Below are positions 17,476-21,440 of a DNA stretch of 24,000 bases, piece after piece; the first letter of the stretch is position 1; the number at the start of each line of letters is the position of its first letter. The stretch lies in NCBI GenBank assembly GCA_964370815.1, contig CAYJKQ010000011.1:55621-79620 (forward strand). Direction: 5' to 3'. Both the position numbers and the translations under genes were made by a program. The notes below the pieces were generated by a model, which was not told the DNA's origin, made no database searches, and saw only the letters and a program-made list of their open reading frames with translations. The DNA is from an uncultured Anaerolineaceae bacterium. GTDB lineage: Bacteria > Chloroflexota > Anaerolineae > Anaerolineales > Villigracilaceae.

Positions 17476-17808
17476 TTAGACGGCATGCCTGCCCAACCAG
17501 AACTTGCGCCAGTCGCCCTTGCTGAGGAAAAGCGCCAGCAGGGCATACAGGCTTCCAGCCCAGAAACCGAGCGTGAGCATTGCCGCCGTCCACAGGATGG
17601 CAACCGGCAGCGACCTCTCGCGGTACAGGATCCAACCGGAAAACAGCAGGAAGCCAGTGTACAGGTCCACCAGGGAGACGATACCCCACGGCATTTTCAT
17701 CAGCTCGCTGCCTTCAGTGAAGAAATCACCCACCGTAAAACCGTAGATCAGTACAGCCGTCATGACCAGCAGGCCTAAAATGGAGATGAGTTTCGCGGTC
17801 TTCATCAC
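17476..17808 (-). CDS. small polytopic membrane protein, DUF1475-like
   Basis: 110 aa. The motif GDFF.EGS.L..MPWGIVSLVDLY.GF.LFSGWI.YRE resembles DUF1475 from memory. Start is GTG 17808 (GTGA overlap) or ATG 17805 (TGATG overlap) with the upstream gene. Confidence 0.65.
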   Translation of the reverse strand: MMKTAKLISILGLLVMTAVLIYGFTVGDFFTEGSELMKMPWGIVSLVDLYTGFLLFSGWILYRERSLPVAILWTAAMLTLGFWAGSLYALLALFLSKGDWRKFWLGRHAV

Positions 17809-18149
17809 AGCACCAGTATCACGCCGATCACGATCTCAATTACCAGGCTGATGACGTTGGAGCTTTCGATGGATTTATCTGTAAACATCGAGATGGCTCG
17901 AACCACGGCGATTGCCAGGTACATCATGCCAAGCATGGGATAAGCTACAGCTTTGTCTAATATTAGTGCTGCGATGCCAAGCCCGATGAATAGTCCGCCA
18001 AATATGGCGCGGATCTCCGTAATGCCGCGCCCACCGACCGGATGGATGCCGGTAAAGCCTTCAATTTTGGTCGGCACGACCAGGGACAACAGTCCGGTTA
18101 GTAAGGTGGCGATAACAGCAATGATCTGGAGTATCTTTAGCAGGTTCAT
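17805..18149 (-). CDS. small 4-TM membrane protein, DUF4345-like
   Basis: 114 aa. The motif E.RAIFGGLFIGLG is reminiscent of DUF4345. AAGGAG SD lies 5 nt upstream of the ATG. Confidence 0.65.
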   Translation of the reverse strand: MNLLKILQIIAVIATLLTGLLSLVVPTKIEGFTGIHPVGGRGITEIRAIFGGLFIGLGIAALILDKAVAYPMLGMMYLAIAVVRAISMFTDKSIESSNVISLVIEIVIGVILVL

Positions 18150-18242: not shown

Positions 18243-19085
18243 TCAAGTATTCTCTTGTGAGATCACGGCGAATCCGAGCGCACCCACCCCAAGATGGCAA
18301 CCCAGCACGGGTGTGATCTGATGAATGGGAATTTCTGTATCGGGCAGGTATTTAAGAACCTGCGTGCGCAAATCTTTGGCACGCGCTTCCACGCCAGCAT
18401 GCAGAACAGCCAACTGTTCGAAAGGACCATATTCGTCCAGCCAGCCGATCATTCGTTCCATTGCCCGCCGCGTGGTACGGACCCGGTGTGCGACAGGTTT
18501 GCCCTGGTTCATATGCAGGAGAGGTTTAAGCTTCAGGATCTCTCCAAAACGTGCCACGGCAACATGCATGCGTCCGCTTCGGCGCAGGTATTCGAGTGTG
18601 TCCAGCGCCGCGAAGACATGGGTGCAAGGCATGAGATCCTTCAAGGATTCCAGGATCTCTTCGATCTTATGACCGGACTGCGCCATCCGGGCTGCTTTTT
18701 CCACCAGGAGCCCCAACCCCAGGCTGAGTTGACCCGAGTCCAGTACGGTGACAGGGATGCGGGTGAATTCTTTGGCTGCTGTGCGTGCCGAGTTGAGAGT
18801 CGCGCTGAGCGCTTCAGCAATGTGGATGGATAGGATGGCTTGAAAACCTTTATCCGCCAGCTCTTCAAAGCGCTTTATGAATATTTCCGGTCCGGGTGTG
18901 GCAGTGCTTGGTGCGGGGTCATATTCCGGCAGCCGGGTGTAGAACTCGTCTTTGGTGATGTTCACTCCGTCCATCAACCGCTCTTCACCCATCTGGATGA
19001 AGAGCGGGATGACCTCTATGCTGTAGCGCTGCACGATATCGGGGGTCAGATCGCAAGTACTGTCAGTGACGATGGCAATTTTCAT
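18243..19085 (-). CDS. DegV-family (FakB-like) fatty-acid-binding protein
   Basis: 280 aa with IAIVTDSTCDL at the N-terminus, STATPGP (the TSQPSPG equivalent) and typical DegV length. The start is 15 nt after the heliorhodopsin stop. Confidence 0.9.
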   Translation of the reverse strand: MKIAIVTDSTCDLTPDIVQRYSIEVIPLFIQMGEERLMDGVNITKDEFYTRLPEYDPAPSTATPGPEIFIKRFEELADKGFQAILSIHIAEALSATLNSARTAAKEFTRIPVTVLDSGQLSLGLGLLVEKAARMAQSGHKIEEILESLKDLMPCTHVFAALDTLEYLRRSGRMHVAVARFGEILKLKPLLHMNQGKPVAHRVRTTRRAMERMIGWLDEYGPFEQLAVLHAGVEARAKDLRTQVLKYLPDTEIPIHQITPVLGCHLGVGALGFAVISQENT

Positions 19086-19100
19086 GGATACTCACGGGTT

Positions 19101-19892
19101 TTAGACTGGCGCCAATGTTCCGGCGAAGATCATCCAGGCCAATACGGTTTTGGCGACCAGGCTCAAAATAATGAAGGCGCGTTCACCATACAGGTAATCC
19201 TTCCATGGTCCGATCTTTTTATATTGCAGGTACATGTTGACGGCAAAGGTATTGAAGAACACGAACAGGGTCGGGATGATGGCGTACACAAAGGCAGGTG
19301 GTTTGGCTTCCCCACCCGAGGCTATCGAACCGAAGAAGTATATGAAGATCACCAGCCAGGGGATGATGCCGGCGATCGAGCCAAAAGTGAACGGCGCCCA
19401 GTCCAATTTTTCCTTGCCCTGGTTCAGGCTTTCCATCAACAGACCGAACAGGTTCATCATGGCATTCAAACCGAACATCACCACTATGGCACCCAGGTCC
19501 CAGACCCCGGCCAGCATCCCGATCAGAACGATCATCAGGGATGAGCTGAGAGCATATTCATAGAACCGGATGGGGTTCCTGCCTTGTTCCAGTTTTTGTA
19601 CATAACTCTTGTAACCAATGCCGCTTAGGTAAAAATGAGCGATGGCGGAAAGCAGGAGAAAGATCGCGACTGCCGGACCCAGGGGTAACTCGTATAAGAG
19701 TTTTGCGACTGGAGCCAGCGAGAAAGTACTGGTGTTAAAACTCAGGAAATTGGTGAAAACAGGATAGGTGGTGTCATTGCTGACCAGCCACATAAAGACA
19801 CCCTGGATCAGGTGCAAAATACCCATGATCAGGTTGAAACGGCGCAGGCTGGTAAATTTAGCCTGGTTGGAACGAACTTCTGTGTTAGTCAT
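19101..19892 (-). CDS. heliorhodopsin (retinal-binding 7-TM photoreceptor)
   Basis: 263 aa, 7 TM. It aligns by eye with the prototype 48C12: RRFNLIMGILHLIQ (His27), LSAIAHF (His86), RFYEYALSSSLMIVL (counterion Glu112, codon 19557-19559), IAGIIPW, LFVFFNTFAVNMYLQYKK, and GERAFIILSLVAKTVLAWMIFAGTL (Schiff-base Lys248, codon 19149-19151). AAGGAG SD present. Confidence 0.9.
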   Translation of the reverse strand: MTNTEVRSNQAKFTSLRRFNLIMGILHLIQGVFMWLVSNDTTYPVFTNFLSFNTSTFSLAPVAKLLYELPLGPAVAIFLLLSAIAHFYLSGIGYKSYVQKLEQGRNPIRFYEYALSSSLMIVLIGMLAGVWDLGAIVVMFGLNAMMNLFGLLMESLNQGKEKLDWAPFTFGSIAGIIPWLVIFIYFFGSIASGGEAKPPAFVYAIIPTLFVFFNTFAVNMYLQYKKIGPWKDYLYGERAFIILSLVAKTVLAWMIFAGTLAPV

Positions 19893-19934
19893 TACTACTC
19901 CTTATAGGTTGGTTGAAATTAATTGGGAATGAAA

Positions 19935-21251
19935 TTACGTGGTTCTTTGCCCGGCAGGCTGCAGGTCAAACCAGTTCAATAGGGGTGCAGCTTCCTGCCC
20001 GAGCGCTTTACGGACACTATCGAAATAAACGCTCCAGGCTGCGCTTGCCTGGTCAATGCCGTACTGGCGGTTATTTAGAAAACCTTCCATCCAGTGCATT
20101 TCAGGCAGGAGAAGGTCCAGGTCGCCGAGATAAAGTGCTGCGGCAACCGAATTGTTCATAAAAAGGGTTATATCGTTGTGGTTTCCTCCTGAAATATCTC
20201 CTGCAGAAAATTGAGTTGAGATCAGTGCTTGGATCGTGTGCAGGTTGAGCTGGAATGATTCATAAAGCTTCCGGAAGGGATTTTCTCCTTCATCAGGGTT
20301 GGCAGGAAGTTTTTTATGGAGGATCAATTCTTCAATTGCAGCGGGAGCTTCTGCGAGCGTATCCCCGAGAAAATGTGCCGGGAGCTGCTTCAGGAGCCCG
20401 GGATTGTTCCTGAAAATACGTCCACCAAAACCAACGGGATGGCTATTTGCCAATGCCTGTACGGTTCGTTTTAATTGTGCGGCACTGCTCAATTGTTGTG
20501 CGGAAAGGACAACCAGCCGGGGCTGAATGCTTTCAGCCGTCTCTTTCAGTTGTGCAATGGGGACGTTGGCGCCCAGGTCGATCACTTTGTAGCCCTGCCT
20601 TCGCAGCAGGAAGGTCAGACAAGTACCCGGGAGTGTATGCTCCTCGCCGGGTGGGCAGCACATCAGGATGGTCTCCTCCCGGTTTGAAGGGGGCATGGAG
20701 GCTATCAGGCTGCCCAGGCGCCGCCGGGCAACCCCGGCCGCGAAGTGTTCCTGTTGTATGCTGGCTTTTCCCTGGTACCAGCTTTCTCCGATTTCAAACA
20801 TGCCTTTCAGGAAGATCTCGCTGCACACTGTTTCCGGGTTGACGAGACCGAAAGCCCTGTTGACGACCTGGTCAGCCAGGTTTTCGTTAAAATTAAGGCA
20901 GGCTTCCAGCCATTGAGCGCGCAGACTGTCTGGCGCAGAACCCATCCCCCCTGATGAAAAATTTGCAGCCTGGATGGAGGAGGATGGATGATCTTCTTCC
21001 AGAGGATCGCGGCCTTTTCGGATCAGGTCGTGCCACAAACCCACGGAATTGGAGATGCTGATGCCTTCGGATCGTTTTGCCATCAACCAGCGGATGATGG
21101 CGATGTCACGTTGCGAGTAGATGCGCTGCCCGCCGGAGGTGCGTCCCGGGGCAGGCAGGTTGTAACGACGCTCCCAGGCTCGCAGGGAATCTGCGCTCAG
21201 TCCGGTTAAACGGATGACGGCTTTCAGGTTGAAGGTGGGTGTGTTTTTCAT
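19935..21251 (-). CDS. MerR-family, cobalamin-binding light-responsive regulator (CarH/LitR-like) with a C-terminal extension
   Basis: Start moved to ATG 21251 (MKNTPTFNLKAV..), since the track start at 21290 falls within the promoter region. N-terminal MerR HTH. The Wx9EH motif WYQGKASIQQEH lies at 20745-20780. A Rossmann B12 domain carries the His loop PPGEEHTLPG (His codon 20637-20639). About 125 extra C-terminal residues follow. Confidence 0.85.
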   Translation of the reverse strand: MKNTPTFNLKAVIRLTGLSADSLRAWERRYNLPAPGRTSGGQRIYSQRDIAIIRWLMAKRSEGISISNSVGLWHDLIRKGRDPLEEDHPSSSIQAANFSSGGMGSAPDSLRAQWLEACLNFNENLADQVVNRAFGLVNPETVCSEIFLKGMFEIGESWYQGKASIQQEHFAAGVARRRLGSLIASMPPSNREETILMCCPPGEEHTLPGTCLTFLLRRQGYKVIDLGANVPIAQLKETAESIQPRLVVLSAQQLSSAAQLKRTVQALANSHPVGFGGRIFRNNPGLLKQLPAHFLGDTLAEAPAAIEELILHKKLPANPDEGENPFRKLYESFQLNLHTIQALISTQFSAGDISGGNHNDITLFMNNSVAAALYLGDLDLLLPEMHWMEGFLNNRQYGIDQASAAWSVYFDSVRKALGQEAAPLLNWFDLQPAGQRTT

Positions 21252-21277: not shown

Positions 21278-21307
21278 ATTGTAACCCCATTTACAATCAT
21301 TTGTCAA
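21278..21307 (-). promoter_or_regulatory. promoter of the photoregulator/heliorhodopsin cluster with embedded operator palindrome
   Basis: Minus strand: TTGACA (rc 21302-21307), 18-nt spacer, TACAAT (rc 21278-21283). A perfect palindrome ATTGTAA-N6-TTACAAT (21278-21297) fills the spacer and the -10. Confidence 0.55.
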
Positions 21308-21411
21308 GGGTTTGTCCATATATTGTATGGATATGGATTGGAAGCGATCAAACCTTTCGGGCAGAGGCAGAAAAGCAGCAGAGCATGAATGATCGTAGAA
21401 CGCAAGAAAAT

Positions 21412-21440
21412 AAATAACTCCCTTTTGCGGGGAGTTATTT
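21412..21440. terminator. intrinsic terminator downstream of the lipoprotein gene
   Basis: 11-bp perfect stem AAATAACTCCC / GGGAGTTATTT with a 7-nt loop. U-rich sequence follows on the - strand (AUUUUCUU) and also on the + strand (UUUUCU). Confidence 0.6.

Follow-up and report, generated by a model that had tools for sequence, protein, structure and literature searches.

The minus strand of the window, by which we mean the whole 24-kb stretch of DNA analysed, carries at 19101..19892 an ORF of 263 aa whose product matches the Pfam profile Heliorhodopsin PF18761 from end to end (positions 1-242 of 242, E 1e-99, 333.2 bits against a curated cut-off of 26.7). An earlier note on this DNA had called the ORF a heliorhodopsin without giving its strand, and Pfam, PDB alignments and a reading of the residues all bear this out. 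The nearest solved relatives found with HMMER are TaHeR from the Thermoplasmatales archaeon SG8-52-1 (PDB 6IS6, E 1.1e-71, residues 8-262) and the family prototype HeR 48C12 (6SU3/9LJJ, E 1e-61), both aligned over their entire length. The hallmark residues are found exactly at the numbers given before: His27 (codon 19812-19814), His86 (19635-19637), the counterion Glu112 within RFYEYALSSS (19557-19559) and the Schiff-base Lys248 within SLVAK (19149-19151), all read on the minus strand. In the HMMER alignments they face H23, H80, E107 and K241 of 48C12 and their TaHeR equivalents. A misalignment of Lys or Glu against the solved structures, which the earlier note had named as grounds for doubt, was looked for and not seen, since both residues stand opposite their 48C12 and TaHeR counterparts with no gap nearby. 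Judged from the sequence, every residue that a retinal-binding heliorhodopsin needs is present, in line with the expectation that the protein should bind retinal, and the ORF reads as a genuine, intact and ordinary heliorhodopsin of the Anaerolineae clade.

The protein shares with 48C12 a further Ser (S244, corresponding to S237), and the residues lining the fenestration of the prototype (F162, C166, G169, F206, N207 and A210) are kept as F168, S172, G175, F213, N214 and A217, with Ser172 taking the place of C166. It differs from 48C12 also at Met220 (Q213 in the prototype), a position at which TaHeR likewise has Met, and is more distant from 48C12 than from TaHeR, with which it has the Glu counterion, the Schiff-base Lys and both His in common. 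Unlike the archaeal TaHeR, the Chloroflexota protein is known from sequence alone and its loop between TM5 and TM6 is six residues longer. Of the Lys and Arg residues in the loops, 13 lie on the side predicted to be cytoplasmic and 2 outside, a distribution that fits the inverted topology of heliorhodopsins and predicts an N-terminus inside. The residues H, H, S, E, S and K are invariant in all orthologues (80-81 compared), and dN/dS is about 0.11 against the copy of the same genus at locus L014, whose genome is also without crtB. Chloroflexota are monoderm, and the close relatives of the protein all come from Anaerolineae/Chloroflexota MAGs, that is from monoderm hosts. Several orthologues derive from groundwater, mine and anaerobic-reactor MAGs, habitats in which light and retinal are possibly scarce.

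The heliorhodopsin gene appears to be the second of a five-gene operon on the minus strand, carH-heR-degV-DUF4345-DUF1475, as suggested by the gene spacing (gaps of 42, 15 and 93 nt and a 4-nt overlap) and by a terminator scan that found no strong terminator between the genes. The first gap, which follows the stop codon of the regulator gene and is itself terminator-free, holds a Shine-Dalgarno sequence AAGGAG (19898..19903) 5 nt before the heliorhodopsin ATG. Beyond the heliorhodopsin stop codon, a gene for a DegV-family fatty-acid-binding protein of 280 aa begins after 15 nt (18243..19085, Pfam DegV 1e-75, NCBIfam DegV 269 bits). The genome has six DegV paralogues, of which this one alone adjoins a rhodopsin gene; about 11 related species likewise have degV behind the heliorhodopsin gene. 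Heliorhodopsin and the DegV lipid-binding protein are encoded in close translational proximity. The operon continues with a small membrane protein of 114 aa (17805..18149, DUF4345 by Pfam), which is found near heliorhodopsin in relatives too, and would end with a DUF1475-like small membrane protein of 110 aa (17476..17808) whose gene, which is also called in public assemblies, overlaps the preceding one by 4 nt. No oxygenase-like gene is present among these neighbours. Upstream of the operon, the terminator scan revealed a terminator-like hairpin on the minus strand with an 11-bp stem and a T-run (21412..21440), which ends the upstream gene and so sets the operon apart as a transcription unit of its own.

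The first gene (19935..21251) encodes a MerR regulator of CarH/LitR type, identified from Pfam, NCBIfam, PDB comparison and an AF2 model. The longest ORF starts at 21290; public gene calls mostly start at Met14, which gives a protein of 438 aa. It comprises a MerR HTH domain (RAWERRY), a four-helix bundle with the Wx9EH motif, a Rossmann B12 domain (ExHxxP...GG) and a photoglobin-like helical domain at the C-terminus. In the comparison with TtCarH/LitR of Thermus thermophilus (PDB 5C8D, 1e-28) both Wx9EH and the B12 motif are aligned, and the two proteins have in common the HTH motif RxWERRY, Wx9EH and a His-on B12 motif. All 9 orthologues of the regulator that were compared have RAWERRY, W158-x9-E168-H169 and E203-x-H205 unchanged. 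Deviations from TtCarH are a Tyr instead of His after the motif Trp and an SxQ in place of the SxT/V element. As the score for the NCBIfam CarH equivalog is 146.5 bits, below the cut-off of 400 bits, we name the protein CarH-type and not a CarH orthologue. The C-terminal 143 aa gave no Pfam or PDB sequence match and were recognised by fold comparison only: with the AF2 model (pLDDT 82) as query, the top Foldseek matches were the photocobilins 8j2w, 8j2x and 8j2y (TM 0.77-0.83, target-normalised, over 318-339 columns), and the modelled C-terminal domain superposes on the globin-like domain of 8J2W/8J2Y. The model accordingly depicts a B12 domain followed by a five-helix globin-like domain, a photocobilin-type architecture. 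In contrast to both CarH and the photocobilins, the regulator would unite all three modules in one protein. The genome encodes a PduO adenosyltransferase and a B12 riboswitch; a canonical heme oxygenase was not found in it.

In front of the regulator gene lies a promoter that matches the consensus at 11 of 12 positions, with a -35 element TTGACA (21307-21302) and a -10 element TACAAT (21283-21278) on the minus strand. It is overlapped by a putative CarH operator, the two together spanning 21278..21333, made up of five 11-bp direct repeats in register. Two units, DR2 (21322-21312) and DR3 (21311-21301), the latter holding the -35 element, agree exactly with the CarH operator consensus nnnnTnnACAn (PMC9304148), and three are partial, namely dr1 (21333-21323), dr4 (21300-21290) and dr5 (21289-21279), which holds the -10 element. 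The putative operator would resemble that of TtCarH/LitR, in which tandem 11-bp repeats cover the -35 element. A scan of 6.49 million genome positions for further repeat arrays of this type gave 17 sites scoring 11/12, the one at carH among them, and none scoring 12; most of them lie within coding regions, and the site at carH alone coincides with a consensus promoter. A genome-wide CarH regulon was considered and is not claimed on the basis of this single site. Eight other species have the module CTTGACAA-ATaaTngACAa-GTATAAT in front of carH or crtI-carH, and in relatives the same promoter precedes crtI-carH-heliorhodopsin. Where heliorhodopsin genes are not adjacent to carH (ten other genomes), an upstream repeat array was present only in two genomes of one genus, which have a SOUL-heR pair; the remaining genes of this set showed no upstream array at the threshold used. 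From the arrangement of promoter, repeats and regulator gene we infer that expression of the heliorhodopsin is probably light-induced.

DegV, cobalamin-binding/MerR proteins, photolyase, AhpC/TSA and DUF1295 have been reported as heliorhodopsin neighbours (Chazan et al., bioRxiv 10.1101/2021.02.16.431466; Cho et al., PMC11109279), and all of these recur either at this locus or in relatives. The two surveys work at the level of Pfam counts, and the text consulted does not describe the operator repeats, the shared crtI-carH-heR promoter or the loss of crt genes in this genus.

The earlier note had stated that no crt/blh-type gene occurs in the 24 kb, and this holds both in Pfam scans of the 21 main ORFs and in a tblastn search of the whole genome. 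The genome-wide search for crt and blh homologs that it had suggested was run on an unclosed assembly of 3.25 Mb in 53 contigs (97.3% complete) and revealed no Blh, CCD, lycopene cyclase or bona fide CrtB or CrtI. In profile searches of this genome there was no match for BCD/Blh or RPE65/CCD, with positive RPE65 controls, nor for Lycopene_cycl, CrtYcd or a type-1 rhodopsin. Blh PF15461 found no match in 14 control, 81 family or 201 phylum genomes, while one clear match (114.7 bits) in an actinobacterial genome reached through locus L089 served as the positive control; HMM searches of this kind would miss a very divergent or non-homologous retinal-forming enzyme. The Blh protein from that actinobacterial control genome was then a tblastn query along with CrtB, CrtI, the lycopene-cyclase-domain protein, the P450 and the photolyase of relatives, and none of them gave a hit in the genome. 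Other assemblies of the same organism run past the end of the contig without crt genes.

Three proteins were considered as hidden carotenoid genes and rejected. The sole phytoene-synthase-like protein of the genome is an SQS_PSY relative (93 bits) whose best NCBIfam score of 78 bits is far below the cut-off, whose second Asp motif is degenerate (NRQED) and which has no crt neighbours. Two oxidoreductases of the CrtI family also stay below their cut-off of 238 bits, with 170 and 110 bits. The genes around all three are unrelated to carotenoid synthesis and encode GNAT acetyltransferases, an acyltransferase, a glycyl-radical activase and a sugar symporter.

A survey of 81 genomes of the same family showed heliorhodopsin in 14, Blh in none and a CCD in one. 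The closed single-contig relative G046 has a heliorhodopsin and lacks Blh. CrtB is present in 7/14 heliorhodopsin-positive genomes vs 34/67 negative ones, and CrtB, CrtI and cyclase are likewise absent from the other three genomes of the same genus. In four related species heliorhodopsin is clustered with crtB, crtI, a P450 and a gene with a lycopene-cyclase domain; Blh is missing there, and any CCD match is weak at best. A carH-like gene occurs in 13 of the 14 heliorhodopsin-positive genomes, and where crtB is missing it has been retained in 6/7 genomes with heliorhodopsin vs 5/33 without, counts that overstate the case for co-occurrence because related genomes are not independent. With no Blh in 81 family genomes, one CCD, CrtB in half of the heliorhodopsin carriers and the negative searches of the genome itself, endogenous synthesis of retinal by known routes is excluded as far as the 97.3%-complete assembly shows.

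A heliorhodopsin without any retinal pathway is a normal and already documented situation for this family. The rarity of blh with heliorhodopsins is described as the norm by Chazan et al. (bioRxiv 10.1101/2021.02.16.431466), and the genomes of our survey agree with it. For TaHeR, PMC9296517 cites a host that, like ours, lacks a retinal pathway, and external retinal that is bound through a lateral opening. The type-1 rhodopsins of Saccharibacteria treated in that paper have an intact Lys, lack blh in good-quality genomes and are inferred to receive retinal from neighbours; they differ in belonging to another rhodopsin family and in their episymbiotic hosts.

The earlier note had left three sources of the chromophore open: scavenging, genes encoded elsewhere and a neighbouring gene product. 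Scavenging stands. Genes encoded elsewhere are unlikely in a 97%-complete genome in which Blh, CCD and Crt proteins are lacking and the Blh search was controlled, and a neighbouring gene product is unlikely given that no neighbour is oxygenase-like and the cell makes no carotenoid substrate. We consider it likely that the protein is a functional heliorhodopsin loaded with external retinal and encoded by the second gene of a light-controlled operon of CarH type. As no known route to retinal or to any carotenoid exists in the host, the chromophore would be acquired from outside, and uptake of external retinal best accounts for its source. The apoprotein, a 7-TM inverted heliorhodopsin with Lys248 as Schiff base, Glu112 as counterion and a conserved lateral opening by the ionone ring, would be loaded with all-trans-retinal or a retinoid from the surrounding community. 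Transcription would proceed from the single strong promoter overlapped by the CarH-type repeats. Without light, the regulator with its bound AdoCbl would occupy the -35/-10 region; light would release it, which would confine the production of heliorhodopsin and its partners to illuminated conditions.

Other readings of the chromophore source were weighed against this one. An undescribed endogenous retinal pathway, with enzymes invisible to homology searches, has been proposed for Aurantimicrobium minutum and raised for heliorhodopsin hosts without blh (10.1101/2021.02.16.431466), and the four crt-clustered relatives without Blh may indeed cleave carotenoids with an unknown enzyme. In our organism we regard it as improbable: the substrate route is missing here and in the other three genomes of the genus, so that a start from a non-carotenoid would be needed, and no conserved unknown gene of enzyme size accompanies the heliorhodopsin. 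To a similar degree we doubt that external carotenoids are taken up, whether to be cleaved by an unrecognised enzyme or to serve the heliorhodopsin purely as a second antenna. The residues of the proposed carotenoid site (10.1101/2025.11.27.691015) are kept as F168, G175, F213, N214 and A217, and a monoderm host such as a member of the Chloroflexota is what that hypothesis requires; however, it rests on docking and bioinformatics, an antenna is no substitute for retinal, the genome searches gave no cleavage enzyme, and Lys248 would still need retinal.

It is very unlikely that the retinal or carotenoid genes merely escaped assembly, lying in the missing 2.7% of the genome or having been binned out. 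The assembly, in 53 contigs, is indeed only 97.3% complete, and a single base separates the end of the window from that of its contig, but the crt genes of relatives lie directly upstream of carH, where this genome has an NBR1-Ig protein, an esterase, ABC exporters and AFOR, and this upstream region is seen on contigs of up to 432 kb in other assemblies of the same organism. Genomes of the same genus, one of them 99% complete, are also without CrtB, and the absence of Blh from all 81 family genomes includes the closed one. Just as little weight can be given to a heliorhodopsin that no longer uses retinal and persists as a relic or as a chromophore-free membrane scaffold or regulator. The lack of an encoded retinal source and the origin of some orthologues from MAGs of dark habitats would fit such a protein, yet 81 species all keep Lys, Glu, the two His and the two Ser, the dN/dS of 0.11 comes from a lineage without crt genes, and the gene stands behind that of a light-sensor regulator.

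DegV and heliorhodopsin may be functionally coupled. A bolder version, which we hold to be decidedly improbable, takes carH-heR-degV as a self-contained light-gated module for the capture of an external chromophore, in which DegV would not serve a fatty-acid kinase and would instead ferry a retinoid or lipid obtained by scavenging to the lateral opening or away from it. If true, it would explain why heliorhodopsin, DegV and the B12 photoreceptor were kept under strong purifying selection after the loss of the carotenoid genes.

The finding on the chromophore itself adds little, as heliorhodopsins occur without blh as a rule and external retinal is already accepted as the explanation. What makes it valuable is that it is a clean example, with a near-complete genome, a carotenoid pathway that is lacking altogether and a strongly conserved heliorhodopsin. 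Many assemblies from one public ENA sample series contain the organism, which, if it can be enriched, would make a good test system for retinal scavenging. The operon and promoter context is more informative than the chromophore question, and it leads to a testable idea of what heliorhodopsins, whose function is still unknown, may do: the heliorhodopsin would be part of a B12-photoreceptor regulon that in relatives also has carotenoid and photolyase genes, which would make this regulon a light-stress response.

The heliorhodopsin gene (19101-19892, minus strand) encodes 263 residues and matches the Pfam Heliorhodopsin profile over its entire length (positions 1-242 of 242, E 1e-99, 333 bits). 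A PDB search matched all solved heliorhodopsins, with the archaeal TaHeR (6is6, E 1.1e-71) and the family prototype 48C12 (6su3/9ljj, E ~1e-61) at the top. The earlier note had placed the hallmark residues at His27, His86, Glu112 (RFYEYALSSS) and Lys248 (SLVAK), and this numbering is exact on the ORF sequence. HMMER alignments to the solved structures are in register and set the four residues opposite 48C12 H23, H80, E107 and K241; as no indel lies nearby, Lys248 and Glu112 are not misaligned, a concern that the note itself had raised. The lining of the lateral opening is conserved as well, F168, S172, G175, F213, N214 and A217 corresponding to F162, C166, G169, F206, N207 and A210 of 48C12. 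Inverted topology is the defining trait of heliorhodopsins, and it is predicted here from the loop Lys+Arg count, 13 on the N-terminal side versus 2 on the other (crude hydropathy segmentation). A scan with one genome per species yielded orthologues at 80 loci, almost all of them labelled Anaerolineae/Chloroflexota, and in an alignment of 81 heliorhodopsin proteins no sequence departs from the two His, two Ser, Glu and Lys. Comparison with L014, the copy from the same genus (94% identical), gives a dN/dS of 0.11, while in comparisons with other genera synonymous sites have reached saturation and only about 10% of non-synonymous sites differ. Judged from dN/dS and this substitution pattern, the protein is clearly in use. 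Several close orthologues (L017, L019, L020, L036, L047 and L087) come from MAGs labelled groundwater, African mines or anaerobic membrane bioreactor, and such dark or dim source habitats are not where a purifying selection on a photoreceptor would be expected.

The window had been described as free of crt and blh genes, and a scan of 21 main ORFs assigned none of them to these families. The organism's own assembly, in which the window occupies C11:55621-79620, amounts to 3.25 Mb on 53 contigs at 97.3% completeness; it likewise gave no match to BCD/Blh, RPE65-type carotenoid oxygenases, lycopene cyclases of either family or type-1 rhodopsins. Since the Blh profile remained silent in every control genome, a positive control was sought, and one 114.7-bit match was obtained in the class sample around an actinobacterial genome. 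This control Blh and, from close relatives, CrtB, CrtI, P450, photolyase and lycopene-cyclase-domain proteins served as tblastn queries against the genome and returned only a 24%-identical CrtI-family match. The sole SQS_PSY relative (93 bits; best NCBIfam model squalene synthase, 78 bits, far below cut-off) is 271 aa long, a divergent member of the squalene/phytoene-synthase family (G000:C9:39801-40616, minus strand; L003 9802-10617). Its first Asp-rich motif, DEIED, is intact and the second, NRQED, degenerate, and acyltransferase and GNAT acetyltransferase genes adjoin it; it was rejected as a phytoene synthase on account of the sub-cut-off score, the degenerate motif and the unrelated neighbours. 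Two CrtI-family flavoproteins were rejected as CrtI (170 and 110 bits versus a 238-bit cut-off, unrelated neighbours). A DUF1295 protein encoded at G000:C25:13285-14178 is 76% identical to the one beside heliorhodopsin in the relative's locus L015; DUF1295, DegV and DUF2177 have been reported as a trio characteristic of heliorhodopsin genomes.

In a fixed set of 81 genomes from the same family, heliorhodopsin is present in 14, Blh in none and a strong carotenoid oxygenase in a single one (G021). This oxygenase (RPE65 family, 388 bits, G021:C51:39998-43973) has a second crtB copy some 1.8 kb away, and G021 also carries part of a heliorhodopsin gene where a contig ends; judging from the genes, oxygenase and crtB might give this one lineage a route to apocarotenoids or retinal. 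CrtB-type phytoene synthase occurs in 7 of 14 heliorhodopsin-positive and 34 of 67 negative genomes, and is therefore not associated with heliorhodopsin. One heliorhodopsin-positive, Blh-negative genome (G046) is a closed single contig, and Blh was not found in any of 201 sampled genomes of the phylum. Rarity of blh among heliorhodopsin neighbours and genomes has been published (Chazan et al., bioRxiv 10.1101/2021.02.16.431466). A passage of Jaffe et al. (PMC9296517) citing the TaHeR structure paper describes heliorhodopsin as used by microorganisms without a retinal synthetic pathway, and external retinal as bound rapidly via a small opening in the protein; a 2025 preprint (10.1101/2025.11.27.691015) extends the idea to external carotenoid antennas. 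A lack of retinal genes is not unusual but ordinary for heliorhodopsins.

The original observation of a heliorhodopsin with missing retinal genes is confirmed, and its earlier interpretation is supported. Retinal acquired from the surrounding community is the most economical explanation, because the organism's own genome and those of its family lack Blh and the literature reports the same at larger scale; the argument combines negative genomic evidence, with controls, and published precedent. The window's genus lacks even phytoene synthase, which makes synthesis within the cell by an unknown route less likely than it would be in a host that produces carotenoids. That the genes were missed through assembly gaps is unlikely as well, given that further public assemblies of this organism (contigs up to 432 kb) extend past the contig end without any crt genes. 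The window stops one base short of this end; beyond it (L101/L102 1-6990) lie genes for an esterase, two ABC exporters, ThiS and an aldehyde:ferredoxin oxidoreductase. The exporters, each ABC_membrane+ABC_tran, form a heterodimer-like pair, and a heterodimeric ABC exporter under heliorhodopsin regulation was reported in an actinobacterium (PMC11109279).

The heliorhodopsin gene (heR) occupies the second place in a dense run of five minus-strand genes. It follows a MerR/B12-binding regulator (19935-21251) after a 42-nt gap holding an AAGGAG ribosome-binding site, and precedes DegV (15-nt gap), DUF4345 (a further 93 nt) and a DUF1475-like gene, the last two overlapping by 4 nt. A terminator scan found no strong terminator inside the block; a strong hairpin terminator (21412-21440) closes the gene upstream of the regulator, and the region's best promoter, TTGACA-18-TACAAT (21307-21278), immediately precedes the regulator. 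The longest regulator ORF begins within this promoter, and Met14, the start in most public gene calls, is most likely the true one. Association of heliorhodopsin with DegV has already been published (Chazan et al., bioRxiv 10.1101/2021.02.16.431466), as have cobalamin-binding, photolyase and AhpC/TSA neighbours and a MerR-family group among heliorhodopsin operons (Chazan et al. / Cho et al., PMC11109279).

Published CarH operators are tandem 11-bp nnnnTnnACAn repeats, one of which holds the -35 (PMC9304148). The regulator promoter is covered by five units of this type in register, tatcCatACAa, tataTggACAa, acccTtgACAa (-35), atgaTtgTAAa and tgggGttACAa (-10), the second and third being perfect. 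When each genome position was scored on both strands over three units (maximum 12), no site reached 12 and 17 of 6.49 million positions reached 11, among them the carH site, the only one of the 17 to coincide with a consensus promoter. These direct repeats suggest a putative CarH operator. A 7-bp inverted repeat, ATTGTAA/TTACAAT (21278-21297, minus strand), spans the promoter spacer and -10; it overlaps the fourth and fifth units and competes with the direct-repeat reading for the same bases. The same promoter module, CTTGACAA-ATaaTngACAa-tgtGTATAAT, recurs ahead of carH in four other species and ahead of crtI in four further ones with the order crtB <-> crtI-carH-heR. In another genus heR stands apart from carH and follows a SOUL-heme-binding-like gene; before the two lies a TACAATAT...ACATATACAAAACATGGAC array (L104 2988-3031, L106 3026-3069) resembling the carH operator repeats.

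By its sequence the regulator is CarH-type. In the PDB it is matched best by Thermus CarH/LitR (1e-28), and nine orthologues keep the RAWERRY recognition helix, Wx9EH (W-YQGKASIQQ-EH) and the ExH lower-ligand motif without change; the NCBIfam CarH equivalog score (146 bits) is below the cut-off of 400. A C-terminal extension of ~140 aa (residues ~300-438; 19938-20354, minus strand) gave no match in Pfam and PDB sequence searches. By predicted fold it is a photoglobin-like domain, because the AlphaFold (AF2) model of the regulator (pLDDT 82) superposes best on the photocobilins 8J2W/8J2X/8J2Y (~330 columns, target-relative TM 0.77-0.83), which makes the protein a fusion of MerR HTH, B12 and photoglobin-like domains. 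Within that model the extension overlays the globin-like domain of 8J2W/8J2Y, which in photocobilins binds biliverdin. The genome encodes a PduO-type adenosyltransferase and a cobalamin riboswitch, and no canonical heme oxygenase was found in it. Most of the 48 family genomes carrying the gene have the long form (~440 aa), while genera g9 and g22 have a short one (~320-340 aa).

In four related species, heR sits in a light-response island with crtB, crtI and carH (L015 1996-4621 and 9067-12133; L024 1967-4608 and 9324-12771; L021 and L026 similar). None of these four genomes has Blh, and only one gives a weak CCD match. L015 and L024 carry photolyase, cytochrome P450 and lycopene-cyclase-domain genes a few kb downstream of heR and no adjoining DegV, which directly follows heR in L021 and L026. 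Because the module precedes crtI-carH-heR and these genes lie nearby in L015 and L024, the regulator is probably what usually switches a carotenoid and photolyase regulon by light in the family, and the heliorhodopsin gene would have been placed in that regulon. The window's genus seems to have lost the crt genes and retained promoter, regulator, heliorhodopsin and DegV. The regulator is present in 13 of 14 heliorhodopsin-positive family genomes, and among the 40 CrtB-negative ones, 6 of 7 with heliorhodopsin retain it versus 5 of 33 without; as related genomes are not independent, this co-occurrence is supporting evidence, not proof.

In the parts of the heliorhodopsin/CarH literature compared, we found no description of an operator-level reading of the heR promoter, a promoter shared by crtI-carH-heR, the photoglobin-like domain on this regulator or the retention pattern after crt loss. 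These are modest additions, more on the regulator than on heliorhodopsin. The best joint explanation is an intact heliorhodopsin that would take its retinal from outside the cell and would be expressed from a CarH-type operon derepressed by light, this second part resting on sequence architecture and its conservation.
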